Source: a virus (Duplodnaviria; Caudoviricetes). From it: 64,000 bases of DNA. A program made the position numbers and the translations under genes. This document shows, in pieces, positions 38,666 to 56,190 of this stretch (its first letter is position 1; every line of letters starts with the position of its first letter). The DNA lies in IMG/VR virus record IMGVR_UViG_3300037455_000245, positions 1-64,000 of that record. The stretch is one strand, 5' to 3'. The notes beneath the pieces were generated by a model. It did no database searches. It had not been told where the DNA came from and worked only from the letters and a program-made list of their open reading frames with translations.

Positions 38666-38797
38666 GGTTAAAGTCCCACAGGGATATAAACCTAAGCATG
38701 TAAATGCTATTCCATACAAAAGAGAGAAATATACTGTAAACGATTACCGTCGTGAGCAGTAATAACTTAAGTTATCAACAATTTAAATTTATCAAAA

Positions 38798-39295
38798 ATG
38801 GCAAAAGAAACAAAAGAAGGCAAGAAGACCCTCGGTCTCTTGGATGTGAATGAAGACAATTTCGAGCAGAGTCTGGACAATGCTGGAAAATTCGGTCAGG
38901 ACGTGATCGATCTGGCAACAGAGAAGGCAGAGAAAGAAGAGAAGGAGCGCAAGGCCCGGGAGTTTAACTCCATTAAGGACAAGGCTGCATACCAGAAACT
39001 TCGTCTCGTAGCTGACTGCCAGTATTCCAAGAAATCAATGGAGATCCAGAAGGAGGCCATGAAGGCTGTAGACGCTCTGTTCGAGCGCGTAGCGAAGGGC
39101 GAAATGGACGCCGTAGACTTCGACGAGGCAAGAGAGAAGGCTATCGACGAGTCCATCAAGAAGGTCAACGATCTTGGAAAGAAGCGTCGTACCAATCTTG
39201 AGAAGCTCCGCAACGCTTATCCCGGCCACTGGTGTTTTGCCTGGGATAACCCGTTCCAGCGCTTGAATCGCGCAATCGAGGACAACAAACGTTAA
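38798..39295 (+). CDS. coiled-coil hypothetical protein
   Basis: 165 aa, TATCAAAAATG context. Confidence 0.8.
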   Translation: MAKETKEGKKTLGLLDVNEDNFEQSLDNAGKFGQDVIDLATEKAEKEEKERKAREFNSIKDKAAYQKLRLVADCQYSKKSMEIQKEAMKAVDALFERVAKGEMDAVDFDEAREKAIDESIKKVNDLGKKRRTNLEKLRNAYPGHWCFAWDNPFQRLNRAIEDNKR

Positions 39296-39311
39296 ATCCT
39301 GCAACAGGCGA

Positions 39312-39718
39312 GTGCCTTGTGCCAGTACCTGATAGACTCAAGATCTGTATAATAAACTTAGTGCGTATAGTTTCTATAAGGTGAGAGTTGTACTGGCCTG
39401 AATTGACAGGTCCGACGAGTGCCGGAGTATGGAGAGAGAAACTGTTAGCGGAAGTGTTAAAATAGCAATATGATGATCATATGGCACAGCTATTGTGATT
39501 TTTAACTATATGGAAACTAATAAGCCTCTCTCAGTTACGAGTGCCAGTTCGGCAGGTAAGCAGCGAACCAACGCTGTTAAAATATATTGGTCCATTGATC
39601 AAATCACTATCTTGTATGTGCCTTGTGCCGGGGAATTTCTTTGAGTCAAGAGACAAAAAGACCCTGCAAGATATATCAAAAATGTGAACTATATACTATG
39701 TGTGTGCCTTGTGCCGGA
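39312..39718 (+). repeat. array of GTGCC(TTGTGCC) motifs
   Basis: Units at about 39312, 39419, 39541, 39618, 39704. Confidence 0.7.
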
Positions 39719-39849
39719 GCATGGTCAATGTAGGATAATTTAAGGACGAAAATAAGGCAAACTAAGATGTTTGAATCTTTGAATGGACCAGCTATCCACA
39801 AGAAGCCTAAAAATAGCTCAGGGAGCCTGAAAATAGCCTTAAATCGAAT

Positions 39850-40177
39850 GTTTTAGCTGATCCCTAAAGCGTTCAACATAGAAATCTTAGCGGTCTGAGG
39901 TATTCTGTTCGGACACGGGTTCGAATCCCGTCGGGTCCACTACAGGAGGTGTCTGGATTTTACGTTTCGACAAGTTAGTCAGACTCAATTCAGGAAACTG
40001 CCGGCATTATCTGAGCCTCCTTTTCTTATATGGGCTCGATAGGCTTTAGACGGGCAGATGAAGTAAAGGCATTAACGCTTCGATATAAATTTAAACGACA
40101 ATATAAACATTGTCGACTATACGGGCCTCAAGGAGGCAGCGTAAAGTCCGTGTACAGGCTACGACAGTGCCTGTGGA
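39850..40177 (+). ncRNA. ssrA: circularly permuted two-piece tmRNA (5' boundary approximate)
   Basis: Acceptor piece GGAC-ACGGG-TTCGAAT-CCCGT-CGGGTCC-A (39911-39939) precedes coding piece GGGCTCGATAGGCTTTAGACGGG (40032); G3:U70; tag DNINIVDYTGLKEAA* at 40097-40144. Confidence 0.88.
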
Positions 40178-40248
40178 TGGATCATGGTGTAATGGTAACA
40201 CTACAGACTTTGGTTCTGTCATTTTGGGTTCGAATCCCGATGATCCAA
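40178..40248 (+). tRNA. tRNA-Gln(TTG)
   Basis: Canonical cloverleaf, ACAGA-CTTTGGT-TCTGT. Confidence 0.93.
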
Positions 40249-40269
40249 CTACAACTAAAATTAATTGAC

Positions 40270-41160
40270 ATGTCAAAAAAATACGATTTTAATAACAATT
40301 AGGAGGAAATAGCTGAGCCTAGTATTGTTAGAATAAACAAAGACTAGGTATCTATTATTCACGCATCTAGTACAGACGTCACAGAAATACCAGATGATGA
40401 AGAGTTGATTATATAGATAGGAAATATAGAATCCTACAATCCATCAACTCTTAGTCCTGAACCAGAACCAGAGAACATTCCGAATAATAATGGAGGCAAT
40501 AATAGTTCACAGGGAAATGGGTCAGAAAACGGAGGAGGATCTGAAAGTGGATCCAGTACAGTTCCAATTATAAATGGAGATACTGTAACCATTGGAAATA
40601 AAACATACGGAACTGTACATGTAAATATCCAGAACGACACAGGAAGTGAAATACGATTGTACGGAGAAATGTTAATATGTGCATCTAGAACCCCATCAAA
40701 TTGGAATAACGCCATTCAAATTAGCGCTGACTTTATTAGACCACACAACCCAGACTGGTACAGTTATCCAAATACAGTTAGTATAGGAATAGGTTAGTCT
40801 TGTTCAATAAATTGTTTAGTAGAAACTAAATATCTTGACGGTACATATTATTTAATGGAAGGACAAAGTGCCAGTGACTACGTAACACCTGTGTGGTTAT
40901 ATAGTGTATACTATAATACACGAGACAATACAGTAAACTGGGGACAAGCGTTGTATCATATAGAAAAGAATGAGATTCGCTAGTAGTTATCTAATGGAGC
41001 AACAATATACGTTACAGCAGATAGATTAAAATTAAGCGATGAAAGTCCAAGAGTAACTGATACAACGGTTGCTATAAGTGGCACAACTACAGAAGTTAAC
41101 AATTTACCTAATACCATACATTACGTTGTATTACCTATTGGAGAAAAAACATTATTATGA
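40270..41160 (+). CDS. hypothetical beta-rich protein, 296 aa, 6 TAG
   Basis: Open from ATG 40270 to TGA 41160 only if TAG is sense; absent from the ORF track. Confidence 0.8.
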
Positions 41161-41804
41161 AGATACAAGACAACATGATCATTCTTAGTGCTGGAGAATA
41201 GCTCATAATTAAAACAGAAGCAGCACAAGAAACGCAACCTGTGACTAAACCAGTATAGGCAGTTGAACCAGTACCTGCAAACGAAATTAAATTCAACTTG
41301 ATAAATAAAACCAACGAAACCGTATATTTCTCAGGTAAGTTGAAACTCTACATTAAACAGAGTAATACTGATATATGGGATAATGATGGGTTTGAGATTA
41401 ACTTATGTGGTCCAGATGATATTTCAGATGGTTGGCCACACTGGCGTAAGAATAATATAAGTCTTGCTCCTGGTAAATCAAAAGAACTCACAGTAACTGA
41501 AATTAAGAAATATGTTGGTACAGGTGTTGCAAACAAAGTTAATACTGTAACAGAACCACTAAGTAAATATATTGGATGGAAGTTTGTATCTGCAGATAAA
41601 GGAAACCCATTTCCTAATTTATCTATTCCAGCTGTTAAACTTGGCGTAGCAGTAATAAGCAATGGAAGTATATCTAATAGTGCATTTATATTACATATAA
41701 CACCGATTAACAGTACAATACAATTAGGTAAGACATATAATCTTATTATAGACACCATTAAACCTAATTATAAACCAAACGCTGATAAATTATACAGCAA
41801 ATAA
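41157..41804 (+). CDS. hypothetical beta-rich protein, 215 aa, 2 TAG
   Basis: ATGA overlap; extends listed ORF 41298..41804. Confidence 0.8.
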
Positions 41805-41806
41805 CG

Positions 41807-41832
41807 AAAAGCTCCTCAAAAGGGAGCTTTTT
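41807..41832 (+). terminator. intrinsic terminator
   Basis: AAAAGCTCC-TCAAAAG-GGAGCTTTTT. Confidence 0.75.
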
Positions 41833-41874
41833 GCGTATATGGTATTTTGTGAGGTCCGATTCCTCACTACGCAC
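41832..41874 (+). ncRNA. tRNA minihelix
   Basis: TGCGTA-11 nt-GTGAGG-TCCGATT-CCTCAC-TACGCA. Confidence 0.5.
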
Positions 41875-41927
41875 AATGTGGACAGCAGGGGCAGCGTGAC
41901 ACCACTATAAAAACAAACGCCCCACAC

Positions 41928-42001
41928 GGACTTTTAGCTCAGTTGGTTAGAGCAACAGACTCATAATCTGGAGGTCGCAGGTTCAAGCCCTGCATGGTCC
42001 A
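41928..42001 (+). tRNA. tRNA with CAT anticodon (Ile2-like or Met)
   Basis: Canonical cloverleaf, CAGA-CTCATAA-TCTG. Confidence 0.9.
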
Positions 42002-42020
42002 CAAACAAATCATAATCAAT

Positions 42021-42500
42021 ATGAACACAGGTTACAAGGAAATGCTGAGGGACAGATGTCCTAAAGTAGTTAGCTTAGCATTAAAGTATTGTAAAGCTAA
42101 AGAAACATGGTTAAACCATGTGTACAAGAATTGGATTTGGATATACAAGAGCAAAAAGGAGCGTCTCGATGCTACTAAAAGATTGCTCGGCAGTAAATCT
42201 AAGCCATTCTGTTTTGCAGATACTATCGATTGGGAGAATCTCAACAAAGAAGAGAAATCTTATTGGGAAACTATTCAAACTTGGGTATCTTGGTTCCAGA
42301 ATAAGTATGCATATATGCAAAACGCTTATTCTATCTCTAAGAGTAAAGGATATAAAGTAGAAGACATTAAATATGAGCTCATGCTTAATTTTATGTTGGA
42401 ACTATGCCCAAGCTCACAGGATGATACAAAGACAAAGAAAATGAAGAACAAAAAAGTTAACGAACTCGCAGATTTTCTTATCGAATCGTTTGAACAATGA
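42021..42500 (+). CDS. hypothetical protein
   Basis: MNTGYKEMLRDR... Confidence 0.75.
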   Translation: MNTGYKEMLRDRCPKVVSLALKYCKAKETWLNHVYKNWIWIYKSKKERLDATKRLLGSKSKPFCFADTIDWENLNKEEKSYWETIQTWVSWFQNKYAYMQNAYSISKSKGYKVEDIKYELMLNFMLELCPSSQDDTKTKKMKNKKVNELADFLIESFEQ

Positions 42501-42949
42501 ATATGTCTGTATTTTCCAAATATCTCGAGCCTCTACGTGAGGCAAATTTGATCTGTTTAACGGACGATCCAAAGCCAAGTGAGATCTACGCAGCGCTGCG
42601 TATCGCATACAATCAAGGCTCAGTGGGTGTAGAATACACTACGCAAATGATCAGTCCAATTGCAAATGACGGAGATGATTATGACGAATGCTATGACATC
42701 TGGGAATGTGCACAATCCGAATCACTAAAAGAGTGGATTGGATGGGTTAATCGAAAGATAACTCTGCAAATTGGCTTACAGAACTACCAAACAATTGGTG
42801 TTAGAGTACGTATAGCCACCAGCATGTTAAATATGTTGGTTCAATTAGGAAAAGTACCAGACAAAGTAGCTCAAAAGATTCATTATTATCTTTGTAACAA
42901 CGTAAGGAACGAAATTACACTCATCGTAAACGAAGAGTTACCGTTCTAG
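42497..42949 (+). CDS. hypothetical protein ending EELPF (TAG stop)
   Basis: 150 aa, SSB-like acidic LPF tail. Confidence 0.75.
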   Translation: MNMSVFSKYLEPLREANLICLTDDPKPSEIYAALRIAYNQGSVGVEYTTQMISPIANDGDDYDECYDIWECAQSESLKEWIGWVNRKITLQIGLQNYQTIGVRVRIATSMLNMLVQLGKVPDKVAQKIHYYLCNNVRNEITLIVNEELPF

Positions 42950-43144
42950 GGCAGTCCCACCCATCCCAGGTATTTATACGCTGCATATGGGTTCTAAAAG
43001 AGGTATGGTTTGATCCAAACTGCCCGCAACACAGCGGATGTCTGTTATAGGAGTGACACCTTAATAACCATCGTCTTGGTAAAATTCCGTCCAAGCACTA
43101 ACGGTATGTCCCTCCCAGGAACTATCTACTCAATTTTGTTTGAT

Positions 43145-43705
43145 ATGGCTAAGAATCCGAAGATTACAGAAGAAGAAATAGCCCTTATCAAAAGCGCTCA
43201 AGCAGGAGAAATCTCTGCTTATAATAAACTTTATGAGAAGTACAAAAACTTCACCACAAACCTTTTGTTTAGATACATTAAGGATTTTGATGAATCCAAA
43301 GAGATTAATAATATCGTTTGGCTTAAAGTTTATAAGAAACTCTCGAAATTCAAAGACTATACTTCATTTGGAGGATGGTTGAGAATACTTACAAATCGAA
43401 CTGCAATAGATTATCTACGCAAGTTAAATGATTTGAACTATGTCTCTGACACTAATGCTCGCTTTGTATCCGAGGATGACAGAGAAGATGTTTATAATGA
43501 TAGCATCTCTGATGATATTACTTACAAACAGTTAGTTGAAACATTTAAGCAATTCCCAGAAGACGCTCGTAAAGTCTTTGAATTGTATTACGGAGAAGGT
43601 CTTACTGTCAGTGAGATTCATAAGGTTACGAACATTCCGGAAGGTACGATTAAATCGCATCTCTCACGAAAACGTAACTTGTTAAAAAACAAATTCAAAC
43701 TGTAA
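43145..43705 (+). CDS. ECF-type RNA polymerase sigma factor
   Basis: AYNKLYEKY, FGGWLRILTNRTAIDYLR, region-4 HTH IPEGTIKSHLSR. Confidence 0.92.
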   Translation: MAKNPKITEEEIALIKSAQAGEISAYNKLYEKYKNFTTNLLFRYIKDFDESKEINNIVWLKVYKKLSKFKDYTSFGGWLRILTNRTAIDYLRKLNDLNYVSDTNARFVSEDDREDVYNDSISDDITYKQLVETFKQFPEDARKVFELYYGEGLTVSEIHKVTNIPEGTIKSHLSRKRNLLKNKFKL

Positions 43706-43709
43706 AATT

Positions 43710-44120
43710 ATGATGACTTTAATCGCTTTCTTGGCTATTACAGCAGTAATCACAGCTATAGCTCGCTATAACGAAAGTGATTCTCTGTTCTGGAAGCTCT
43801 TTATCTCCCTTGTTGGAGCTTATGGAGCAGCCACTATCGTCACCCACGTGATTGATAGTAAAGAGAAGGATAAAGTCGTGATGATTGATGACAATCCCAC
43901 ACAGGTGCACAAGAGCGTAAGCTACGCTCCGTTTGTGATGCGTAGCACGTCTCTTAGTGCTACCCGTCGGGTGAAAACCCAAAAGCCTGTGAGTAAGGAT
44001 ACTGTCATTAAGAATAGCGATTCTATCCTGAGTAAGGTCTTCGTGTCTGCACGAGGCCAACCACAGATAAGCTCTGTACGACATATACTACATGAGCTTG
44101 TATACTTCGACACGTCATGA
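43710..44120 (+). CDS. membrane protein
   Basis: Two N-terminal hydrophobic segments. Confidence 0.7.
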   Translation: MMTLIAFLAITAVITAIARYNESDSLFWKLFISLVGAYGAATIVTHVIDSKEKDKVVMIDDNPTQVHKSVSYAPFVMRSTSLSATRRVKTQKPVSKDTVIKNSDSILSKVFVSARGQPQISSVRHILHELVYFDTS

Positions 44121-44195
44121 CTGACATATTTCACTAAGAAATCACATTCGAAGTACATTTAACTAGAGTATTAACAAAAAATTTTCATTATCAAA

Positions 44196-45590
44196 ATGGG
44201 AAAGAATAATAACAAGAAAACTCCTGCTGTTGAGGCTCCTGTAGTGGAGGCCAAGCAGGTAGAAGAAGTGGGTGGAAAGTCCGCTACCGCCACCATCGTC
44301 GATATGGCCGCAGGTAAGGGCTTAACCCAAAGCGAGAAGCTGCAGTTTGCCACAGAGCTGCGCCATCGCGTGTCCGAGTTAAGAGAAGAGGACAATCCTC
44401 CTCTCGAGATGATTAAGGGCTACAACATGATCCGCGATATCACATTCATTGACCTGGCAGCAGGTGAGATTGCATGTGGTACCAGCGCGACTGGTTTCAT
44501 ATTCTCCGGAAACGAAGTTGCATACAAGGCTCTTTGTGGTCTTGCGTTGACAATGGGCGTTAAGATGCCGGACTTCAAGACTCTGCCAGCTCCTACAAAG
44601 GAACAGCTGCACAACGCTGGTCTGGAGGGTATCGGTGAGACAAAATATGTCGCCATCGAGAGCAAGGACGTGTCTAAGGAGACCAAAGAGAGAAAGAAGA
44701 AGGAGCGTAAGCTCAACGACGAAGCAGAGAAGGCTGACAAAGCCTATCTGACCGACCATACCAAGATTGAGACTCCTGAACAGCTCGGTGAGGCGCTTGG
44801 GTTTCAGTTGGTTAACCTTAAGGTTGCTAGTCCAGTTGAGCGTCTTATCACAGCAGCTCAGTTCTACCGTTCCTATCTTGAGGCTCGCGCCGAAAAGTCG
44901 GACAATCCGGAAGCTGAACTTGCTAAGATCCACGAGAATTCTCTCGCTGATCTGCTTCAGGACATTAGCACTATGGTGCCCCCCACCTTCGCCATTGAAG
45001 GCTTCGGCAAGCACTTATGCAAGCTTGCGGAATCTAACGGAAGTATTATTCCTGCGTTCAACCTGTTCCGCAAGGCTTCCATCAATAAGACGACGGGAAA
45101 GTGCAAGTTCTCTGATGAGGAATGTGCAGTCCTGGTTCGCGTCATTATTGTATGGAATGCAAGCGCTCAGATCGCAAGTATCAGTAAGGATATCAAGCTT
45201 CTGAACAAGGACGCTAAGGCTAACGCCAAGGCTATTGAGCAGTGTACTGCTAAGATTCAGCATCAGCAGGACATCATCTCTCTCGCATCAGAGCCCGATT
45301 TCGATATCGCTGACAACTTCATTGCTGCATACAAGGACAACGAACATGCTAAGCACAATCTCGCTGTAGCACTGTATAACAGCATCATATCTACGTACTA
45401 TCCTGACGCTGATATCCCTGAGTTGGAAGTCGATACTGCATTGTTGAACGTTCAGCAGCGCATCGGCATCATCATAAACCTGTTCAACTCTGAGCTTGGT
45501 AAACGTGATGATTATTCTGAAGAAAACCTGATTGCATTCTCCACCGAGGACGAAAAGCCCAAAGAAGGTGAAGGATCAAAAAACTCATAG
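44196..45590 (+). CDS. hypothetical protein, 464 aa (TAG stop)
   Basis: Long ORF, biased codon usage. Confidence 0.85.
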   Translation: MGKNNNKKTPAVEAPVVEAKQVEEVGGKSATATIVDMAAGKGLTQSEKLQFATELRHRVSELREEDNPPLEMIKGYNMIRDITFIDLAAGEIACGTSATGFIFSGNEVAYKALCGLALTMGVKMPDFKTLPAPTKEQLHNAGLEGIGETKYVAIESKDVSKETKERKKKERKLNDEAEKADKAYLTDHTKIETPEQLGEALGFQLVNLKVASPVERLITAAQFYRSYLEARAEKSDNPEAELAKIHENSLADLLQDISTMVPPTFAIEGFGKHLCKLAESNGSIIPAFNLFRKASINKTTGKCKFSDEECAVLVRVIIVWNASAQIASISKDIKLLNKDAKANAKAIEQCTAKIQHQQDIISLASEPDFDIADNFIAAYKDNEHAKHNLAVALYNSIISTYYPDADIPELEVDTALLNVQQRIGIIINLFNSELGKRDDYSEENLIAFSTEDEKPKEGEGSKNS

Positions 45591-45662
45591 TGGTCATTAA
45601 GGGAAAGGGCAAAGCCTTGATGACCAAAGTGAAGAATTACATTTTTGCTTAAACTGTGAGCT

Positions 45663-46154
45663 ATGAAACGGTTAACTACAGTAATATGTTGTATCTGTCT
45701 TATGGTAGCGGGAATCGGTCTTGCTATATATGACTCAGATACGCATCTCAATGAGCTATATGCTGGCGAACCGGCTCCATTAGTATGGAATATCCCCAAT
45801 GGGGGTGTGATACCACTCGATCTCCGATTGGATTCGGAAAAGAGACAACCTGATATCCAGATGCGAGACTCTATCAACATCATCGATTCTATTCGATGGG
45901 TTGATAAGTATCGTTATCGTATAAAGTATAAAACTGTGTCTGATCGCACAACAGCACGGGAAGCAGGTGAGCATCCGGACGGTGTCAATCCAGACACCTT
46001 AGCTGGACGTACTGCAACAATTTGTGCGCTGGAACGTGAGGAGCAACCCAGCGATACTGTTGGCACTCCTAAAGTGCCATCTATACAGCTTTCTGTCGGC
46101 GGAAAAGTTGTATATTCGAATGACGATAATCACTCCACGGGGGAGAGTCAGTGA
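45663..46154 (+). CDS. membrane-anchored hypothetical protein
   Basis: N-terminal hydrophobic helix. Confidence 0.7.
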   Translation: MKRLTTVICCICLMVAGIGLAIYDSDTHLNELYAGEPAPLVWNIPNGGVIPLDLRLDSEKRQPDIQMRDSINIIDSIRWVDKYRYRIKYKTVSDRTTAREAGEHPDGVNPDTLAGRTATICALEREEQPSDTVGTPKVPSIQLSVGGKVVYSNDDNHSTGESQ

Positions 46155-48270
46155 GGATTCACTGGCTCTCCGGCCATTGGGCATCCCGCTTAGTCCACGT
46201 CAACGGTCTCATTAGCCGGGACGAAAGAGTACAACTTGATCCGAGAATATGTCGAGCCCCAAAGGCAAACTCAAAAGGTAGGATGAAATGCTGTATAGTC
46301 ATACGTACTCTATGACAGAAAAGTATACAGTAAGAGGTGTGAGAGGTGTATCAACACCTTGCTGCCTCCCGAGAACCGATTGGTGGGGAGGATTGCCAGC
46401 TAAACTCTCGTAAGTCGCAAGAAGCGCAAAATGAACCGTATCGACAGATCTACTATAATGATACATAGTAGTAGAATAACGTTACACGAGTTGAACATAC
46501 AGTAAAGATGCCAAACCCTGTATGATGTATCAATTCACTATTGCTGTAGTCCAGTGTTCCACGCAATCCAGGGCGTGTATGAAGGGATGAAGAATTATCT
46601 GAGTATATGAACCTAGCGGAAGGTTTGACTGTCCGCGCCGTACCGTAACTACGGTCCTTGAAGAAATCCTTCCTGTGTCGAGACAGGATGACCACCTTTG
46701 AGGCCAAGGTCCCAATGGGTCACCGGGGATGGGGTGCTGAGGAAAATATGATGAAGATGACCGCCAGGCTTTGGTCGTTCAAGCGGTATAAGACACGTGG
46801 AATTGATTCGTGCTAAAAGTAAATGACCACCAGTTCGATGCAGGAACTGATTGATTAGTAGCGCCTAGAGGCGTGATTGCTGCCCGAGTGAAGGCCGGGA
46901 TGAAAGCCTATTCAAACGGCACATAGTTCTAGTAAGCAAGAACTCACTGTGTAGATGGGAGATGTACCAGAGGAAATGCTGGAGTCGAAGGATGACAACC
47001 TGACAGTCAAAACCAAGTTTTTTACAATATCGGTCGATTCGAGGTCTATACATACCAGTGTAGAAGGAGATCGCCAACGTCTGTATAGGATAATATAGTA
47101 GAACACTGATATACTATATCAGCGAGAGTAGTAAACTCGTGTGCGGTATATCTTTAGTTACAAGCAAAACTATATGAAAGTAGCCAGATGAAGTTAACAT
47201 GTTGAACAAAATTAAGTGTCCCTCTATGAAATCTATTACGTTATGTATAATCGGGATAGAGTCCGCTACCTCCTGTTGTATGGGAGAACATAGCCATTTT
47301 AGACGTATGATAGAGAAGCTTGAGTGCCAACCGTTTCTGAGAAGCAAGTAGCAGGATAGATAATAGTTTGGGGTTAGACTGCAAATCTAACTAATCGGCT
47401 TAGTCTATGAAGCAATATACGCAAACGATGCAAGGCAGCCTATCGCAAAATGAAATCACCTCACTGTCTATGAGGGGTAAAGGAAATGAGTAATTAGTCC
47501 GTCGAAAGATGGTTCGCTGATGAAAAGGACTCGATGAAGTGGCGCATTAGGTGGGTGATAAATCTTATAGCGTATGAGGTGGAATTCCTCCAGTATTCGC
47601 GCACTATAAACAGAAGCCAGCAGCAAAGCTGAATGTACAGTAAAAAGCCGTAGGTCCATCATGGGTTCTGGAGCCCTAGGCCATGTCCGATAAAGAAACA
47701 CGTTCCTCTTGACGTGAGATGCCACATGCTGATAAACAACGAAGCCAGATCCAACTGGAAAGCAAATGGACGAGAACGTTAATGTTGCTGTTAGTCTCGT
47801 AAAATATTCAGAAGCATAGCAGACAATCTTCGACACTTATTTGGAACGTACAGCGAGAAGATACACTGCACCTTATTGGTTTACGTTATTTGCATCTATG
47901 AGCACTAGGCCGTGACCATCGTAAGATGTAGCTACTCTGCCAACGAGCGCAAATAATATTTTACAAAAACTAAATATTGTGTTTTATATTTGGTGCTTGA
48001 TTGCACAACTGGCAATTAGCGCTTTTGATCCTTATATAGAGATGGGCTTGTATATCCTACCGTTGGATTCCCGTCGTACGAGTTGAGCTTCACTTTGAGG
48101 AATATAGAAGTATGACAACTATGTAAGTAAACGCGCTTCCCATGAGCATAGCACAACCAGAATAAGAAACAAATTAGAAACACAACATACTTTTTATAGG
48201 CAACGTCCCGCCTTAGAAGTGGACAAGTTCATTACCTGATATCGTTGGTTAATCAATAACGATGTCAAAA
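46155..48270 (+). ncRNA. candidate large structured ncRNA region
   Basis: 2.1 kb with no credible sense ORF and many hairpins. Confidence 0.4.
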
Positions 48271-48282
48271 AGGATATAAGGT

Positions 48283-48900
48283 ATGGCATATAACGAAATG
48301 GATATTGCCCTGGAGTCAGTACGACCCCAGGTTATCAACATTAGCCGCACGCTCCCAACTGGAGCAAAGTTTTACAAAGTAGAAGCAACTGACATTGATC
48401 AGGGCTTCGAAGAGCGCAAGAATCAGCTGATGGCTGATCCTAACACTCCTGAGTTTATTTTCAATCGTTCACCGCGCGTCATCGTGTTGAAGGACTTCAG
48501 CGTGAAGAGCCAGGACTTTGAGGTCGACATTGACGGCAACAAAGTGGTGGTCTTCAATAAGGGTACGAATGAGCAAGCCCAAGCAACGATCGTTGCTGGT
48601 GGTGTGAACTTTGGTCAGACCACCGATGAGGCCATGAAGGATGCACTTCGTGGGCAAGATCGTATCTTTGCCGACGGCATTAAGACCGCCACAAAGGTGA
48701 ACGCTCTGAACGCAGCTGAGCTCTCCCGTGTGGAGGCCATGATCAAGTACTGGACTGGAAAGGCTGATGCCATCCGTTCAGCAATTGCTTCCAACAGCAA
48801 GAAGGTCAAGGACTACCAGGACGTTCTCGCTAAGTTCCGCAAGGATATCGATTTGTCTGCCGGAGACGGCGACGGCTTCGCAGTACAGGTTGAAGGATAA
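48283..48900 (+). CDS. hypothetical protein
   Basis: 205 aa. Confidence 0.8.
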   Translation: MAYNEMDIALESVRPQVINISRTLPTGAKFYKVEATDIDQGFEERKNQLMADPNTPEFIFNRSPRVIVLKDFSVKSQDFEVDIDGNKVVVFNKGTNEQAQATIVAGGVNFGQTTDEAMKDALRGQDRIFADGIKTATKVNALNAAELSRVEAMIKYWTGKADAIRSAIASNSKKVKDYQDVLAKFRKDIDLSAGDGDGFAVQVEG

Positions 48901-48902
48901 GT

Positions 48903-49505
48903 ATGGCGAACTCGGTTGATGATGCAAAGCTGCAGGCTCCCGAGTTAATATCGCTCTTACTGAAGGAACCAAAAATCCTTCAGAAGATTGTATTGGCTAT
49001 GAAGCCTAAAGCGCGGGGTTACACCAAATGGAAGGTTGTACCTGAAGAAGAACGAATTTATCTGGGAAAATATTCCTGGCATGGATTTGGAGAATTCTGG
49101 AACAATCTTATCAAATGCTGTGATCACATCTCTTTCGACGATTTCTACATTAAAGTGTGGGATGCGTTGGTTGAGATGACTGCTGGTACTGAAGCACACG
49201 AAGCCGTGCTTGAAGGACTTTCTCGTGAAGTTCTCATGCAAGGCATCCACGCAAAGGACCAGAATATACTTCATCGATTCTTCGATGTATGTCGACATTT
49301 AACATCCGATGGATATTGGAGGGACAAGGGACTGAAGCGGGATAATCCGCCTCACCACCATTTTAAAGGCTGTCCGTATTCTGGTGATGTAGAAATAGAG
49401 GTAGAACCTCATGGCCGACCGCGACCTGGAGTATTTCGGGTGGTAGACTCGGTTGGAGATGCATTTGAGATTATTAATGTGAAATGGTTAGGTGGACGTC
49501 ATTAA
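48903..49505 (+). CDS. hypothetical protein
   Basis: 200 aa. Confidence 0.75.
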   Translation: MANSVDDAKLQAPELISLLLKEPKILQKIVLAMKPKARGYTKWKVVPEEERIYLGKYSWHGFGEFWNNLIKCCDHISFDDFYIKVWDALVEMTAGTEAHEAVLEGLSREVLMQGIHAKDQNILHRFFDVCRHLTSDGYWRDKGLKRDNPPHHHFKGCPYSGDVEIEVEPHGRPRPGVFRVVDSVGDAFEIINVKWLGGRH

Positions 49506-49788
49506 ACGGGTACGTCGGGCCTCTGCGGGGGTCTGTAGTTATTGGTCTGAGGGCTGGTGCTACAATTGGTATCTGTGTTAATGATAACACTTAAACAAGT
49601 CGCACAAACGTTTTAAGTGCGCTCAAAATAGACACAACAGCTATACTTTGATTAGGAACTCTGCGGGGGGCCATATAGTCAAAGTATAGCTGTCAGGTTT
49701 CTAATGAAGTGATTTATTAGAAACTGCAAGGTAAATGATGCTCGAATTCAATTTTAATTAACATGTCTAACTAAATCAAGAATTGCTT

Positions 49789-50334
49789 ATGACGAAATCA
49801 ATTAAATTGAATGCATCGAATATTCTTAACATTAAGAAGAAGATTGATAACGATATTACAAAGTATAGCCACATTATCCGTGAGGAGAATTTGATATCTA
49901 AGAAGGCTATTGAGGCTGGTAAGGGTTCAGGCTTTGATCTTAAAGCTCTGTATAATACTATCCAGCAGCTTCGTACTAAGCGTATTATGCTTAAGGGTAT
50001 GATTCAGTATCTTAATATGGGTACTACTACGTTTAATTACGAGGATTTTAAGAAGACAAACTATTATGCTATTTTCTCTGCTTGTGAGGCTAAGGAGGAT
50101 ATCACTTTGTTAAAGATGATTAAGACTCTGGACCCCAAGACTAAGGCTCAGAAGGGTAAGAAGACTCTTGCTATGAAGGAGACTTTCTCTAAAGAGAAGA
50201 TTGCACAGCTGATACACGATCAGCAGCTTGAGGCCAACAAGTTTGACGCTATTCTGGCTAAGTTCAATACTGATACTAGCATCGAGATTGATGAGAGCAA
50301 CAGTGATGACTTTAAGGAGTATATTACAGCGTAA
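49789..50334 (+). CDS. hypothetical helical protein
   Basis: 181 aa. Confidence 0.8.
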   Translation: MTKSIKLNASNILNIKKKIDNDITKYSHIIREENLISKKAIEAGKGSGFDLKALYNTIQQLRTKRIMLKGMIQYLNMGTTTFNYEDFKKTNYYAIFSACEAKEDITLLKMIKTLDPKTKAQKGKKTLAMKETFSKEKIAQLIHDQQLEANKFDAILAKFNTDTSIEIDESNSDDFKEYITA

Positions 50335-50449
50335 TAAAAATTGGCAGGTTATAACAAAATAAGGGCGTCTAGACAGTTCGATGCTGTCAATAACCACAAA
50401 TGGTGAGTTCCACACCTATAACATGTAAAACAATTAAATCATTATCAAA

Positions 50450-51370
50450 ATGTCACGAAAGAATTTTAAGGTAGACACTGCCGCAAACGGTCAGACTGCC
50501 AAACAAGATACAAAACACGCATTCAGCGAAATAAAGCGCGAACTTGGCGTAGTTGAGAAGACTAACGTTCCTACTGGAAAAGTCAAGAATACGGAAGATC
50601 GCCGTAAGGCACGTGAAGAATCATACAAACAGTTCCGCGTGAACGCTCTCAAACGACGAGCGCAACGCATGGGCTTAACGGAAGAGCAGACGAAAGTAAA
50701 AATAGATCAGCTGCTCAAACAGATGGATGAGCCCGCTACGTATAATATGATCGTAACGTATCATGTCAGCGACAAGGATATGCTTATCCAAGCTCTAAAG
50801 AAGGAGGATATAGTATGGAAGATTATGGTAAATCCTACTCGACGCTGTCAGGATGCATATTGCATCATAGAGGCAGACAAGGATGTACTCGATTATCTCC
50901 GTGGATTGAATATCCCGACGCTGAAGATCTATCCGTATGTCAAGAAGAAGCCAGCTATAATAGAGGCTCTGTCAAGGAAGAAGAGTGATTACGTTGCTAA
51001 GAACAATGATAAGTCTAAGACTCCGAAGGGTATCCGCAATGCACGAAAGGCTATGATAGTAGCCGCTATGATCGAGCATCTTAAGGAACTCAAAGCTAAT
51101 GGCGTCATCAAGCAGACAACCGCAAACATGCTCAAGCGCACTTATGTAGCAATGCATAATGACCACAAACTTGCTGCCAAGTTGCAGAAAGAGGTGCGTA
51201 CAAAGCATGAGCGTAAGTTGAAAAAGCAGGAAATGCTGCTCAAGAAGAAGCTCGAGAAACGCCGTCAGGAGGCCAAGAAGCGTAAGGCCGGTACAATTGT
51301 ACCTATGAATGCTAAAAAGGCCTCAGAGAGCCCCAAAACAGCCTCTAAGACGCTCAAACAGGCCGCATAA
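50450..51370 (+). CDS. basic hypothetical protein ending LKQAA
   Basis: 306 aa. Confidence 0.8.
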   Translation: MSRKNFKVDTAANGQTAKQDTKHAFSEIKRELGVVEKTNVPTGKVKNTEDRRKAREESYKQFRVNALKRRAQRMGLTEEQTKVKIDQLLKQMDEPATYNMIVTYHVSDKDMLIQALKKEDIVWKIMVNPTRRCQDAYCIIEADKDVLDYLRGLNIPTLKIYPYVKKKPAIIEALSRKKSDYVAKNNDKSKTPKGIRNARKAMIVAAMIEHLKELKANGVIKQTTANMLKRTYVAMHNDHKLAAKLQKEVRTKHERKLKKQEMLLKKKLEKRRQEAKKRKAGTIVPMNAKKASESPKTASKTLKQAA

Positions 51371-51399
51371 CCTATGTTCAAATTAATATACAAATTGAT

Positions 51400-52188
51400 A
51401 TGGGACATAGCAGCATTCGTCCTAAGGTGCGTCGAAGAAAAGTAGCTGCCCTTGCAGCCTATAGCCGTAAGTTTACCGTTAGGAATAATACAATACACAA
51501 GCTAGGATTGAACTCTAAGAATGTTGTAGTAATGTTCAAGGAGATACCGACTGCTAGGTTTGATACTCCTATATTCGGTAAGATGTTTGAGATAGATAAA
51601 GACGGTCATTATCATCTGATTGAGCGTGAGTTTGATCCGACACCGATGCTGTTGAATCATAAGCAGCCGAAGCGACTTATGAAGTATAACAGAATTGATA
51701 AAGACGGTAATCAACGTAATGACTTTGTCAAGTTCTTCCCCAATTATCCATACAATCTTCCTAAGATGAACAAACAGGAGTATATGGAGAAGCTTGTACA
51801 GCATAAGTTGGCCAAGTGGGAGAAGAAAAATCCTAAGCCACAACAGGATCTGTTTGACAAAGTAGAAGACTGGGAACAGCGACGATTCCTAGCAGAACAA
51901 CGATTCAGAGACTTCGTCGTCTCTGTCTACGACCCTCTGACCCTCATAGGACGATTCGTCCTAGGCGCGGGTAACTCAGCTACCTATCAGGAAAAGAAGA
52001 TAGCTGAGATAAAAGATATCAACGGAGAAGGACACATGGTCAACCATTTGTCAAAAAATTCAAAGTTGATGAAAAAGGCTCAGAAGATTACAAATCACAC
52101 AAAGAATAAATATCCAAGTTTGGTAGCATGTAATCTGAAAGACCACAAGAAGCAGCATGGCAGGATAATCTTGCCACAGGCTGCGTAA
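51400..52188 (+). CDS. basic hypothetical protein ending LPQAA
   Basis: 262 aa. Confidence 0.8.
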   Translation: MGHSSIRPKVRRRKVAALAAYSRKFTVRNNTIHKLGLNSKNVVVMFKEIPTARFDTPIFGKMFEIDKDGHYHLIEREFDPTPMLLNHKQPKRLMKYNRIDKDGNQRNDFVKFFPNYPYNLPKMNKQEYMEKLVQHKLAKWEKKNPKPQQDLFDKVEDWEQRRFLAEQRFRDFVVSVYDPLTLIGRFVLGAGNSATYQEKKIAEIKDINGEGHMVNHLSKNSKLMKKAQKITNHTKNKYPSLVACNLKDHKKQHGRIILPQAA

Positions 52189-52281
52189 CCTATATGGGAC
52201 CCCCACTACAGAGAATGTACTTCGTCAGCGAAACGGAGTGTACAGCGATTGCACGGTGGGGAACAATTAGACATGTGAAGT

Positions 52282-54156
52282 ATGATTATTAAGAACAAAC
52301 TAGTCGTTGTTTACGACATAGAAGTATTTAGTAACTGCTTCCATTGCTGCTGTAAAGATACAGAAAGCGGAGACATCATAAAGTTTGAAATAAGTGAAAG
52401 AATCAATCAGCTCGAAGAGCTGGTTGATTTCTTTTACTATAATTCGCAGGACAGAATGTTCTGTGGGTATAATAACAAACATTATGATGATGTTATCATA
52501 AATTATATGATAGACTATCATTACAAAATGGCGCAACTGCCAGTTAGTAAGGTATGTCGTTCGCTATTCAATTTATCGCAGCTAATCGTCGATGATGAAA
52601 TCGACGGAGTATCAACATTCAAACGATGGAAGTACGCTAATTACTTCTATTCAATGGATTTATTGACTATGATGTTTAGTCAGAAGTTACGTGTCGGCTT
52701 AAAAACGATGCAGGTAACGATGCACTATAAAAATGTGCGGGAGTATGACGGCGACTTCAACAAACCAATAGCCGTCGAAGATATTGACGATATGATATCG
52801 TATAATATCAATGATGTAGAGTCTACTACTCAGTTGTTAAACCAGCTGAAAGGGCAAATAGACTTACGTCTCTTCATAGAAGAGGAACACGGAATTGATT
52901 GCTTGTCAATGGATTCTGTTAAGATGGCAGAGACCTTCCTGTTGGAGAAATACTCCGAGAGGTCAGGTATTCCCAAAAATGTAATAAAGGAAATGAGATC
53001 TCCCATGGATTATATTCCGTTAAGAGATGTTATTCTGCCATTTATATCCTACAAAAACCCAAAGTTACAGAGTCTCTTAGAAGAAATGAAGGAACAGGTA
53101 GTTTATTCTAAGGAACGAAAAGGCTACGAGAAGGAGTTCGTCCTCTCGAACGTGGTGTATTCTGTGGGAGTGGGAGGTATACATACCAAACACGACCCAA
53201 AGATATTCCTCCCAGCCGATGACGAGTTTATAGGGCACGCAGATGTGGCGTCGATGTACCCGTCTTTATTGATAGAATATCAGTTTGGACCTCGTCACTT
53301 GGGGAAACTATTTTGCGAGTTATTTGCCCAACTGAAAGCCGAAAGGCTAGAAGCAAAACATACAGGTCAGAAGATTAAGAACTTGTTCCTAAAGATTGTG
53401 CTAAACTCTCCTACTGGTAAAATGCAGCAGGAGGTATCGTGGATGTACGATCCGTTTAACGTTTTTAAGATAAGAATAAATGGTCAGTTAATCCTTCTTT
53501 TGCTCGTAGACAGGCTTTTAGAGCTTGGCTGTGAAATTATACAGTGCAACACCGACGGTGTCGTCTACAGGGCTAAAAAAGGCCTTAAATCGGCTATTTC
53601 AGATGCTATTACCGAAGTTGAAAAACTTACGCGTCTAGAATTCGAATCTGATGAGTATGAAGCCTTCTATCAGTACGCTATCAATGACTACTTTGGTGTC
53701 TTGAAAGGCGGTGAGATAGAAGAAAAAGGTATGTTTATTACGAAGCGAGATGACAGGAGACTGGGCAAAGGTCTCGCACCTGTGGTTATACCAAAGGCAG
53801 TAATTGCATATTTCACAGAAGGAATTCCTATTGAACAATATATAAAATCTGATGGAGACATCAGAGACTTCTTAATGTCCCAACAAGTCGATAAGAAGTT
53901 TACTGTGCTGCACGGGGAAAATCGAGTACAGCGCATTAATAGGTTTTACGCAAGTACAAATGGTGAATATCTGTTTAAACAAAAAGATGGAGAAAACCCA
54001 GAGAACATGTTAACAAAGTCAGGAGTAACAATCTTGAACGAGTTATATGATACGACTGTAGAAGGTCGAAAGATCAACTATAGGTACTATATCAGCGAAG
54101 CCAAGAAGATTGTTTCTGACTTCACTGAACAACAATTAGAACTATTCAATCTATGA
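52282..54156 (+). CDS. polB: DNA polymerase family B
   Basis: Exo YDIE and GYNNKHYDD; pol DVASMYPS, KIVLNS, NTDG. Confidence 0.95.
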   Translation: MIIKNKLVVVYDIEVFSNCFHCCCKDTESGDIIKFEISERINQLEELVDFFYYNSQDRMFCGYNNKHYDDVIINYMIDYHYKMAQLPVSKVCRSLFNLSQLIVDDEIDGVSTFKRWKYANYFYSMDLLTMMFSQKLRVGLKTMQVTMHYKNVREYDGDFNKPIAVEDIDDMISYNINDVESTTQLLNQLKGQIDLRLFIEEEHGIDCLSMDSVKMAETFLLEKYSERSGIPKNVIKEMRSPMDYIPLRDVILPFISYKNPKLQSLLEEMKEQVVYSKERKGYEKEFVLSNVVYSVGVGGIHTKHDPKIFLPADDEFIGHADVASMYPSLLIEYQFGPRHLGKLFCELFAQLKAERLEAKHTGQKIKNLFLKIVLNSPTGKMQQEVSWMYDPFNVFKIRINGQLILLLLVDRLLELGCEIIQCNTDGVVYRAKKGLKSAISDAITEVEKLTRLEFESDEYEAFYQYAINDYFGVLKGGEIEEKGMFITKRDDRRLGKGLAPVVIPKAVIAYFTEGIPIEQYIKSDGDIRDFLMSQQVDKKFTVLHGENRVQRINRFYASTNGEYLFKQKDGENPENMLTKSGVTILNELYDTTVEGRKINYRYYISEAKKIVSDFTEQQLELFNL

Positions 54157-54716
54157 TAATTGAATTAGACACAAAACTTCTGGATGAATTTCCAGATCTA
54201 ACTATGAATCAGTATGTATTCCTAAGTATGGTATTGGGTAAGAATCAACCAAAATATCAAGACGTCCGCAAAGTTGTCAGCCTTATAAGCGACGAAGAGA
54301 TATCATACTTAGTTTCTCATGAACTAGTAACCGCGATCGAGAGCGGTGAGTCAATTACATATCAACCGACAGATAAGCTAATATCCTCGGTAAAGAAAGA
54401 GAAAGATTATTTCGATCTCTTTTACGATATGTACCCAGTGTATGTAATGAGATCAGATGGGAGTAAATCTTATCTGAGAGCCAATGTAAACAAGTGCCGT
54501 CATTTCTTTAACGCCAGGTGTGGGGGAAGTTCTGCAATGGCGGAGCACCTTATCAAATGCCTTGATTATGAAATATCTAAGCGCATGCGAGAAGGTAGTC
54601 TCAGTTATATGATGACTATGTGGAATTGGTTAACTCGTTCACAGTGGGAAGCGATTGAGGAAGAGATGCAGGATACAGATAAAAATGTAGCTTCTTATGG
54701 AACAGAACTTATCTAA
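54153..54716 (+). CDS. putative replication initiator / helicase loader
   Basis: FDLFYDMYP motif; lies between polB and dnaB. Confidence 0.6.
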   Translation: MIIELDTKLLDEFPDLTMNQYVFLSMVLGKNQPKYQDVRKVVSLISDEEISYLVSHELVTAIESGESITYQPTDKLISSVKKEKDYFDLFYDMYPVYVMRSDGSKSYLRANVNKCRHFFNARCGGSSAMAEHLIKCLDYEISKRMREGSLSYMMTMWNWLTRSQWEAIEEEMQDTDKNVASYGTELI

Positions 54717-55623
54717 CGTTGTACGTCCGATGAGTGTTGTGGCCCAAGAGACCATCAACTACATCAAAGGCAGAAGAGAGCATAAAATTGTTTCTCTTAG
54801 CACGAGATGGAAGAAGTTCAATAAGCAGTGTATGGGAGGTATTGAACCCAATACTGTATACACCATACCTGGCATCTCGGGTTCCGGTAAGTCTAGTTTT
54901 GCTAACTTACTATCTACTGATATCATAGATCTTAATCCCTCAGAGGATATAATTGTGCTTAGCTTCTCGTTAGAGATGGTTGCATTTAGGCAAGTTGGAA
55001 GGACGCTTTCTAATAAGCTCAGGAAAACGACTTCGACTCTGTATAGCTCGGAAACGAGCCTTGATGACCAAACGTTTGGTAGAGTCATTGGAGTATGCAA
55101 TCAGCTAAAGGAGTATCCTATCTATTTTGTAGATAGTCCTACTACTCCCATGCAAGTTCAAGAGATTATATCTACATTCTATAACACGTATGTAAAAGGT
55201 ACTGGTAAACACTTCGTGATATTCTATGATCACGCATTGTTAACTAAACCCATCGGTTCTGTCTTGGAAACCATTGCCGAATTACAACGTGTCTTCATTC
55301 AGGTCAAGAAATTGCCCATGACGTCTGTCATACAGATAGCTCAAATGAATCGAAATATAGAGGCGCCTGAGAGGATTAATAACCCACTATCGCATTATCC
55401 TATGCGTAGTGATATTTCATCGTCCGATGCGATTTTCCAGGCGTCCGATTACGTCCTGGTCATTCACAGACCTGAGATGTTGGGCATACAAGAATACGGT
55501 CCAAATCATTTACCTACACAAAACAAGGTGTATATTCACGTTCTTAAGAATAGGGATGCTGGTAAGCCTTGTATCCTTGAATTCGAGAATGACCTTATGT
55601 ACAACAATCTCCTTGAATGTTAA
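54697..55623 (+). CDS. dnaB: DnaB-like replicative helicase
   Basis: GISGSGKS, FSLEM, AQMNR, IFQASD, KNRD. Confidence 0.92.
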   Translation: MEQNLSNVVRPMSVVAQETINYIKGRREHKIVSLSTRWKKFNKQCMGGIEPNTVYTIPGISGSGKSSFANLLSTDIIDLNPSEDIIVLSFSLEMVAFRQVGRTLSNKLRKTTSTLYSSETSLDDQTFGRVIGVCNQLKEYPIYFVDSPTTPMQVQEIISTFYNTYVKGTGKHFVIFYDHALLTKPIGSVLETIAELQRVFIQVKKLPMTSVIQIAQMNRNIEAPERINNPLSHYPMRSDISSSDAIFQASDYVLVIHRPEMLGIQEYGPNHLPTQNKVYIHVLKNRDAGKPCILEFENDLMYNNLLEC

Positions 55624-55665
55624 TCTGTCGGACAAGTATTAACATTTTAAAAGAAAGGCTGAATT

Positions 55666-56190
55666 ATGACAAAGTATACTTTTTCTATCAACAATAGTAA
55701 TATTAATAAGACTAATACCGGTTGTCCTTTTTGCAACAAGTGCAATACCTCTGCATATTATTCTGAGATGCTTACTGATCTCATTAATGCTGATATAGAG
55801 GAGAAGAATCCTTGGCTGTTTGGTTATAAGAACAACACTACCAATAAGCCCGGTACTATCGATATTAAGCTTACATCTCCCGGCACTACGTCGTTTGACG
55901 AGCTTGAGAATGCGTTCATTTATGGTGGTACGAAGTACTACTATAACAATGCTTATAACTTCCTGAAGGGTCTCGGTACTTGTATCAATTGCCCGTTCAA
56001 GAAGAATATTAAGTACAAGCTGAACGATGGTACCTACTTTAAGATTACTGATGATTACATTCACATCAACGATGAGATGTACTTCTTTAATCTGATGGAT
56101 GATGCTTTCTTCTATAATCTCAGCTGTCCGTTGAAGAAGACGATCGCTACGATTTATATCGCTGGTCTGAAGATTACTATTAAGAAATAA
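55666..56190 (+). CDS. hypothetical protein
   Basis: 174 aa. Confidence 0.75.
   Translation: MTKYTFSINNSNINKTNTGCPFCNKCNTSAYYSEMLTDLINADIEEKNPWLFGYKNNTTNKPGTIDIKLTSPGTTSFDELENAFIYGGTKYYYNNAYNFLKGLGTCINCPFKKNIKYKLNDGTYFKITDDYIHINDEMYFFNLMDDAFFYNLSCPLKKTIATIYIAGLKITIKK

Follow-up and report, generated by a model that had tools for sequence, protein, structure and literature searches.

A conserved, non-coding 2.1-kb locus in crAss-like phages of the family Suoliviridae probably specifies a multidomain structured RNA

The 64-kb stretch of DNA analysed here (the window) is the beginning of a complete 105,228-bp virus record, and sequence comparisons place its source among the crAss-like phages, as an Oafivirinae-like member of the family Suoliviridae from the bovine or ruminant gut. 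Its nearest relatives in GenBank are Buhlduvirus cr272_1 and cr273_1 (Suoliviridae, Oafivirinae) from pig feces, and near-identical DNA is contained in sequencing runs from bovine and sheep gut. Within a + strand block of early/middle genes, a gap of about 2.1 kb separates a gene for a 163-amino-acid (aa) protein (45663-46154) from one for a 205-aa protein (48283-48900), with all neighbouring genes on the + strand. The initial annotation had placed this gap at 46155-48270, described it as free of open reading frames (ORFs) and rich in hairpins, and proposed that it encodes large structured RNA, as a single molecule or several, akin in concept to the phage RNAs GOLLD and ROOL but not recognised as either. 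Here we describe the gap and the putative RNA element that occupies it, on the + strand unless stated otherwise.

The gap is not protein-coding. The earlier claim that it contains no sense ORF of at least 60 aa held for the + strand of 46155-48282 under translation table 11. Under code 15 (TAG read as glutamine), the sole + strand entry was a 61-aa frame that needs four recoded stops; table 4 gave an 89-aa frame needing four TGA codons, and reading TAA as glutamine gave 83-aa frames needing two or three TAA codons. ORFs on the minus strand measured 122 aa at most. The period-3 power of substitution entropy, a test independent of the genetic code, was 0.0-2.2 within 46110-48270 in an alignment of 19 lineages, compared with 4-17 in both flanking coding sequences (CDSs). 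Mean entropy in these lineages was 0.6-1.0 bit in the gap versus 1.15-1.4 in the flanking genes, and column identity was 0.55-0.89 versus 0.2-0.5 in the flanks. The gap had also been described as less AT-rich than ordinary spacers. Its G+C (GC) content is indeed raised, at 0.478 (46001-47000) and 0.407 (47001-48000) against roughly 0.33-0.42 over most of the window, but this elevation is not specific to the gap, because the two genes upstream likewise reach 0.45-0.48.

The gap is conserved among related phages as a unit. Using blastn, collinear conserved blocks were recovered across its whole length in cr272_1 and cr273_1, the flanking protein genes being unaligned at the DNA level. Two exact-motif scans of IMG/VR yielded 34 loci, and the 15 loci with enough flanking sequence (13 from these scans and two from GenBank, with three pairs representing the same contig twice) all carry a stretch of 2.08-2.33 kb between ORFs of 150-169 and 202-245 aa, without any ORF of at least 80 aa. 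The 19 non-redundant lineages share pairwise identities of 50-84%. In nhmmer searches, a profile of the gap matched over its full length the syntenic gap in six Oafivirinae lineages and in dozens of metagenome contigs (E values of 1e-137 to 0). E values were 1e-154 to 1e-212 for such matches in Cacepaovirus cr131_1, Chuhaivirus cr130_1, a Bohxovirus from the human airway and Burzaovirus cr7_1 from human feces, and in Dulem virus 42, from a lemur, the profile aligned in two collinear pieces (E values of 1e-53 and 1e-46), with the core missing. A degenerate core pattern was too loose to be used alone, as nhmmer confirmed 56 of the 240 metagenome or genome loci that it returned. The element occurs in relatives sampled from the guts of humans, macaques, lemurs, pigs, and ruminants, and in one from a human airway sample. 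It is passed on as a single collinear block whose position among the early/middle genes is constant, after the genes for a sigma-like factor, a small product, a ~460-aa protein and a small membrane protein and before those for a ~205-aa protein and the replication proteins. It is also the best-conserved feature of its neighbourhood, because the adjacent 464-aa protein, which finds only 8 phage records, keeps only 24-29% identity.

The gap was located in the other subfamilies by synteny, with an extracytoplasmic function (ECF)-type sigma-like factor (43010-43705; Sigma70_r2 and r4 domains) as the anchor. This factor is common to all five Suoliviridae subfamilies, at 25-52% identity, and always stands four genes upstream of the RNA locus. 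An equivalent gene order, with a gap of 1.85-2.5 kb that is unannotated or, as it appears, spuriously annotated, was present in Loutivirinae cr4_1, cr53_1, and cr56_1, in Boorivirinae cr55_1 and cr10_1, in Uncouvirinae cr125_1 and in Bearivirinae cr6_1. The longest + strand ORFs measured 45-88 aa in the five of these gaps in which they were determined (all but cr6_1 and cr56_1). Positional equivalence of the gap thus spans all five subfamilies. At the nucleotide level, nhmmer matched the 5' domain in Loutivirinae and Boorivirinae with E values of 1e-7 to 1e-26, together with weaker collinear matches to the core and the 3' end. A covariance model of that domain (R1, 46188-46345), run with filters off, detected the domain at full length on the + strand where the gap begins, both in Boorivirinae (E values of 5.5e-10 and 4.8e-6) and in Loutivirinae (2.3e-7, 3.3e-7, and 5.8e-6). 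Homology in sequence and predicted structure is therefore firm in three subfamilies, and marginal matches only suggest it in Uncouvirinae and Bearivirinae.

The evidence for RNA structure comes mainly from covariation. A structure-blind scan (G-test with average product correction, applied to every pair of columns in a profile alignment of 47 sequences) showed that 62% of the top 50 column pairs were at least 85% Watson-Crick or G.U, compared with 5% of random variable pairs; in a 24-sequence version, 27 of the top 100 pairs stacked antiparallel on another top pair. RNAalifold, applied to 47 non-redundant sequences, proposed 260 pairs in which 90.3% of cells were standard, compared with 35-43% in controls whose 3' partners had been slid by 1-3 columns. 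Compensatory changes, counted when changes occurred in at least two sequences per type, were present in 149 of the 260 pairs versus 59-77 in the slid controls. Under a stricter filter, 27 helices spread over 46193-48280 passed with 47 sequences, and 36 helices, from 46029 on, passed with 24 sequences. For 46025-46345, a MAFFT alignment of 19 sequences, which is free of model-fitting bias, was 92.0% paired versus 34.5-46.4% when slid, with 37 of 45 pairs compensatory and a covariation score of 0.511 (0.09-0.12 when slid; none of 500 shuffles as high). The covariance-model alignment of the 5' domain, comprising 63 distinct sequences from three subfamilies and fitted to the model in a way that favours structure, was 96.0% paired versus 33-50% when slid, with 26 of 28 pairs compensatory and none of 500 shuffles reaching its score. 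One pair in this domain displays all four Watson-Crick types (AU 21, CG 17, GC 11, and UA 9). Compensatory pairing is thus abundant, far above slid and shuffled controls, and several dozen helices are kept by compensatory mutation.

The pairing also has a direction. Wobble pairs are conserved in the + sense at two positions (U.G in 50 of 59 and G.U in 44 of 62 sequences), and among pairs chosen without regard to strand, G.T cells outnumbered A.C cells by 103 to 67 (p=0.007), or by 79 to 48 in another count. The consensus fold reached -263.5 kcal/mol on the + strand versus -235.5 on the minus strand. The conserved G.U pairs point to an RNA read from the + strand, as the opposite strand would carry C.A mismatches. 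Base pairing at this locus is under strong selection, purifying as well as compensatory, in a + strand element.

The limits drawn earlier were right as to the region but too narrow, since covarying structure begins before the gap, with hairpins from 46028, and extends up to the ATG at 48283. The last ~125 nucleotides (nt) of the upstream CDS are structured, with covarying stems flanking the conserved 'REE' and 'SK' codons. Three short hairpins lie in this 3' coding end (46028-46105), formed by 46028-46032 with 46048-46052, 46062-46066 with 46074-46078, and 46090-46095 with 46100-46105; changes on both sides were observed, within the close clade only, in 4 of 4, 5 of 5, and 3 of 4 pairs. In most lineages, the loop of a 13-bp hairpin (46142-46171; 12 of 12 pairs compensatory, 92% of cells paired) contains the upstream gene's stop codon. 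Next comes the 5' domain described by model R1 (46188-46345), which is more widely conserved than any other part of the element. According to the covariance-model alignment, it contains a helix of 46204-46207 with 46215-46218, a helix of 46236-46242 with 46281-46287 enclosing 46256-46258 with 46264-46266, and a helix of 46289-46296 with 46325-46332 enclosing 46298-46303 with 46311-46316. The last two correspond to stems that the initial annotation had picked out by eye (CTGTATA with TATACAG and, inside it, GTCATA with TATGAC), and they were compensatory at 8 of 8 and 5 of 5 pairs across the 63 sequences; two further stems named there, GGTGT with ACACC and CTCCC with GGGAG, lie just 3' of 46332 and covary by eye.

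Downstream of this domain, the middle region (46343-47138) appears as a chain of local helices, each 86-99% standard with 2-7 compensatory pairs in 47 sequences, in which the best structure-blind covarying column pairs also land. These helices join 46343-46347 with 46405-46409, 46449-46455 with 46469-46475, 46549-46552 with 46585-46588 (around an inner helix of 46557-46564 with 46573-46583), 46616-46622 with 46630-46636, 46637-46642 with 46650-46655, 46772-46784 with 46818-46829, 46993-46996 with 47006-47009, 47046-47051 with 47058-47063, and 47124-47126 with 47136-47138. The core domain (47316-47612) contains the longest invariant blocks, of 30 nt (47322-47351) and 41 nt (47572-47612), a hairpin of 47372-47378 with 47386-47392, and a helix of 47417-47441 with 47549-47575 that encloses a variable, mosaic module (~47442-47548). 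A possible closing helix for the core would pair 47323-47339 with 47591-47605. However, the invariant GCACT block has two alternative partners, and the rival core pairing of GTGGGTGA with TTCGNGCAC is indistinguishable because both partners are invariant. The module at ~47442-47548 exists in at least three unrelated sequence versions among the lineages. These versions are distributed without following overall similarity, which suggests that recombination within the RNA locus has exchanged modules.

The 3' region (47618-48152) again consists of local helices, which pair 47618-47621 with 47628-47631, 47649-47657 with 47679-47689, 47902-47904 with 47938-47940, 47956-47960 with 47973-47977, 47993-47996 with 48003-48006, 48055-48057 with 48065-48067, 48073-48079 with 48110-48116, and 48135-48137 with 48150-48152. 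The element ends in a terminal helix (48236-48280) made of 48236-48246 with 48270-48280 and an inner hairpin of 48246-48254 with 48261-48267; with 10 pairs, 93% standard and 6 compensatory in 47 sequences, it pairs the purine-rich AAAAAGGA tract immediately 5' of the downstream ATG (48283). A 39-nt piece of the 3' terminal region is 95% identical in Burzaovirus cr7_1 and cr124_1. Two long-range helices proposed by RNAalifold, 46246-46254 with 47195-47203 and 46135-46136 with 48199-48200, had no compensatory support. As seen so far, the architecture is that of a string of compact local domains rather than one globally closed fold.

Some sequence motifs within the element were also recorded. GATGAA occurs 7 times in 46155-48282 versus 1.3 expected (z 5.1), is partly conserved in place and lies mostly on the 3' side of helices, as in GGAUGAA, which pairs with UUGAUCC on either side of a G-G mismatch. 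A tertiary motif that recurs along the RNA is a possible explanation. A GGAATTCC palindrome in an invariant hairpin loop is not conserved, being GAAATTCC or GGAATCCC in relatives, and therefore lends no support to homo-oligomeric assembly. The sequence TTAATCAATAACGA has a single genomic copy and so is not a repeated signal. ORFs have been annotated inside homologous gaps in several GenBank records (loci L038, 2943-3449; L040, 3250-3732; L041, 6457-8465; L286, 9883-10044; and L287, 10110-10295). Bohxovirus and cr7_1 have a single 'hypothetical protein' apiece, on the minus strand, whereas Dulem virus 42 has some dozen tiny ORFs and the small ORFs of cr125_1 and cr10_1 are on the + strand. These annotations are probably spurious, because they overlap covarying RNA structure or covariance-model hits.

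The earlier remark that the RNA is not recognised as GOLLD or ROOL was borne out by Rfam 15, in which no family, these two included, matched the gap credibly even at E values up to 10. At gathering thresholds, the whole window contained only three matches to tRNA models and the permuted transfer-messenger RNA (tmRNA) described below, all outside the stretch. In 45400-49000, searched at E values up to 10, three chance-level hits were obtained: CRISPR-DR41 at 22 bits (threshold 36), mir-7360, and isrF. The gap matched no Rfam model of GOLLD (RF01998), ROOL (RF03087), OLE, HEARO, raiA, RNase P, rRNA, or tmRNA. A full-text literature search found no description of the element, including in the crAss genomics paper PMC7886860, the Crassvirales review PMC10136315, a 2026 preprint on Segatella copri crAss phages and the GOLLD/ROOL cryo-electron microscopy (cryo-EM) paper PMC12286853.

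Several other candidates were tried and rejected. A group I or group II intron disagrees with the flanking ORFs, which are separate, complete genes in 15-19 lineages, as well as with the lack of an intron model match and of any + strand ORF of at least 60 aa. A CRISPR or tRNA array was ruled out by Rfam, tRNA and repeat scans of the stretch. A replication origin was rejected on the grounds that the stretch has only one 18-nt direct-repeat pair and two trivial tandem repeats, a GC content at or above that of the genome, and strand-specific G.U pairs.

Signals for separate transcription were considered together with RNA sequencing. Scans for sigma-70-type promoters and intrinsic terminators returned hits at or below shuffle expectation, the terminator-like ones all on the minus strand, and the Bacteroidota -7 motif TAnnTTTG was conserved at no position in 47 sequences. 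A single look-up returned 24 sequencing runs that contain portions of the stretch, and six of these were RNA libraries. Because these RNA runs were chosen for containing the stretch and were available as contigs only, their depth over the best-conserved segment cannot rank expression and uncovered parts prove nothing. Runs X1 and X3, labelled as metatranscriptomic RNA-Seq, cover the whole 18 kb of 38000-56000 at 100% identity (at fairly even depth in X1) and therefore probably carry phage DNA, likely encapsidated; they may come from the sample from which the genome was assembled. Runs X9 and X19, two samples of one bovine metatranscriptome study, contain contigs 90-98% alike over 46448-48153, deepest over 46953-48153 and with little or no cover just upstream.

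Taken together, these results make it very probable that 46028-48282 (+) is a conserved, non-coding, multidomain structured RNA locus of ~2.1-2.25 kb that is specific to Suoliviridae. The ORF, covariation, and Rfam results support the original idea of one or more large structured RNAs that resemble GOLLD and ROOL in concept only. That the locus yields one large RNA is a plausible reading, which we hold tentatively. In the mechanism that we propose, the locus would be co-transcribed with the flanking genes in an early/middle polycistronic transcript, because conserved internal promoters and terminators were not found and the structure joins without a break the end of the upstream CDS on one side and the downstream start codon on the other; the absence of internal signals fits co-transcription and does not prove it. 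The transcript would then function as a large RNA, either intact or after cleavage into a small number of pieces. The long blocks that are invariant and unpaired suggest contact with a slowly evolving partner. This could be the translation or transcription machinery of the host, or else tertiary or quaternary contacts made by the RNA itself; the fast-evolving phage proteins encoded nearby are less plausible partners. The terminal helix probably gates translation of the downstream 205-aa gene as well.

Several observations weigh against this interpretation. The best R1 hits in Uncouvirinae (E value of 0.004) and Bearivirinae (0.089) are marginal, though at the expected position, and a search tolerating up to 3 mismatches did not recover the blocks invariant in Oafivirinae from Bearivirinae cr6_1 or Uncouvirinae cr125_1. 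Only one pair with clear covariation support, 47339-47591 (~250 nt), spans more than 200 nt, which leaves one giant fold a tentative reading. The minimum free energy of the single sequence barely beats that of shuffled sequences, with z -1.67 on the + strand (none of 20 shuffles as stable) and -1.21 on the minus strand. The X9 and X19 contigs are compatible with transcription and say no more than that. 

The same evidence bears on how many molecules the locus makes. It could instead be a cluster of independent smaller non-coding RNAs (ncRNAs), each of ~100-400 nt, processed from one precursor, which we judge somewhat unlikely. Nearly all supported helices are indeed local (<70 nt, with few at 135-160 nt and the one longer pair at ~250 nt), the module at 47442-47548 is swapped between lineages, and the profile aligns with Dulem virus 42 in two pieces without the core. 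Yet collinearity over the entire 2.1 kb is preserved in every full-length relative and partial sets of modules never turned up, no conserved internal promoter (TAnnTTTG) or terminator was found, and a nucleotide-only alignment is weak for detecting long-range pairs. At the opposite extreme, the whole ~2.1-2.25 kb would be one RNA that folds, alone, as a multimer or as a ribonucleoprotein, into a defined particle whose invariant blocks engage the Prevotella/Bacteroidota translation apparatus during infection. We regard this as unlikely, at a slightly lower level than the cluster. The switch of Suoliviridae to TAG-recoded late genes often lacks a recognisable suppressor tRNA, and a particle of this kind might support that switch; if real, it would be the largest structured non-ribosomal RNA known from a phage.

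Other explanations dispense with a large RNA product. A purely cis-acting intercistronic leader, whose only role is to regulate the flanking operon genes through stability, processing, antitermination, or translation, would agree with the overlap between the structure and the 3' end of the upstream CDS, with the covarying helix that pairs the AAAAAGGA tract beside the downstream ATG and with the lack of conserved internal transcription signals. We nevertheless find it quite improbable: 2 kb with several dozen conserved helices and invariant unpaired blocks of 30-41 nt goes far beyond a leader, we know of none that approaches such size and helix number, and the genes to be regulated evolve much faster than the element. 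An element acting as DNA, such as a replication origin or a packaging or recombination site with its hairpins formed in DNA, is favoured by the location, since genes for replication lie a few kilobases downstream (DNA polymerase in relatives; DnaB, AAA_24, and primase in this window). It is very improbable given dozens of compensated helices, conserved G.U pairs whose counterparts on the opposite strand would be mismatched A.C, a GC content equal to or above that of the genome and the lack of iterons, tandem repeats, or an AT-rich unwinding block. Decayed or oddly encoded protein sequence (pseudogenes, an unrecognised code, frameshifting, or an intron-split gene) deserves mention in a family for which stop-codon reassignment and introns have been reported (PMC7886860) and in which some GenBank records annotate small ORFs inside the gap. 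This is scarcely credible, however, as no long ORF appears under any single stop recoding, period-3 signal is absent across a gap that is better conserved than real genes, both flanking genes are complete with their own start and stop in all lineages, and Rfam scans of the window gave neither an intron family match nor a homing endonuclease. We thus retain the structured RNA locus as the preferred interpretation.

The surrounding genes complete the picture of the locus. From 5' to 3', the order is a permuted tmRNA, tRNA-Gln, tRNA-Met, the ECF-type sigma-like factor, a 136-aa ORF, the 464-aa protein (44196-45590), the 163-aa protein, the gap, the 205-aa protein, and a 200-aa protein, with DnaB, AAA_24, and a Toprim primase further on. 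The tmRNA (39850-40235) matches Rfam RF04321 at 49.4 bits, and ARAGORN predicts the tag peptide DNINIVDYTGLKEAA; the span given by ARAGORN (39850-40249) overlaps the start of the tRNA-Gln(UUG) gene. This phage-encoded tmRNA is circularly permuted, and a tmRNA is annotated at the equivalent place in cr273_1, cr131_1, cr130_1, cr125_1, and cr10_1. The 163-aa product, a predicted small membrane or secreted protein with a hydrophobic N-terminus, has no Pfam or PHROG family match. Its CDS is nevertheless a real gene, with protein motifs conserved across 19 lineages, synonymous third-position changes and a period-3 signal in its 5' part. The 464-aa and 205-aa proteins, whose synteny with the RNA is conserved, likewise match no Pfam or PHROG family. 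AlphaFold2 (AF2) models the former as all-alpha, with a predicted local distance difference test (pLDDT) score of 80, and the latter, whose CDS has a strong period-3 signal, as alpha+beta with a long helix (pLDDT 84). Searches of the two models with Foldseek and VIA gave generic helical-hairpin or coiled-coil matches only, and for the 205-aa model no PDB fold stood above background; on these predicted models, the searches do not establish new folds.

Metagenomic bins offer a hint as to the host. Contigs of ~100 kb from crAss-like phages carrying the element have been binned into metagenome-assembled genomes (MAGs) labelled Segatella copri, 'Lachnospiraceae', and 'bacterium' (loci L043 [JAJWOH010000001.1], L111, and L103), and the Segatella copri bin holds a 101.6-kb contig that matches the profile. 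This bin fits the Prevotella host reported for Bohxovirus (PMC12697116), while the other bins look like mis-binning. A Prevotella or Segatella host is thus suggested.

The locus takes up ~2% of a compact phage genome, and keeping that much non-coding sequence, better conserved than the surrounding genes, implies an important RNA-based function. Rfam has no entry for it as yet, and the searchable crAss literature makes no mention of it. When a phage of the Suoliviridae can be grown with its host, phage biologists will have in it a defined locus for deletion or probing, and RNA structural biology gains a new target 2-3 times the size of GOLLD.

Comparison with known systems places the element among large ornate phage ncRNAs in concept, being non-coding with 27-36 well-supported covarying helices. 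It shares with rRNA (16S/23S) and self-splicing introns its length class, covarying helices set between invariant unpaired blocks and variable modules resembling 'expansion' segments. However, it matches no rRNA, group I or group II intron, RNase P, or tmRNA model, domain-closing long-range helices are unsupported, and no gene is interrupted. ROOL (RF03087) is likewise a large ornate phage or prophage RNA and was first seen in rumen metagenomes, in keeping with the bovine gut origin of the window; in contrast to ROOL, the present locus has no Rfam match, is limited to one crAss-like family, lies between protein genes rather than in a tRNA island, and is presumably several times larger. OLE has been solved as a homo-oligomeric RNA-only assembly. 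Such assemblies have also been solved by cryo-EM for GOLLD and ROOL (PMC12286853). GOLLD (RF01998) is a very large, elaborately base-paired phage or prophage ncRNA in which, as here, conserved and more variable portions coexist; it is reported to have 'many members exceeding 800 nucleotides' and often lies near tRNA or tmRNA genes (PMC12286853), as does this locus with a permuted tmRNA and two tRNAs 4-6 kb upstream. GOLLD assembles into a multimeric nanocage. The differences are that neither sequence nor structure matches and that the locus measures ~2.1 kb and belongs to phages of Bacteroidota. Judged from sequence and predicted structure, the locus appears to represent a new family of very large phage non-coding RNA, 2-3 times larger than GOLLD or ROOL, unrelated to them in sequence and structure and alike in concept.

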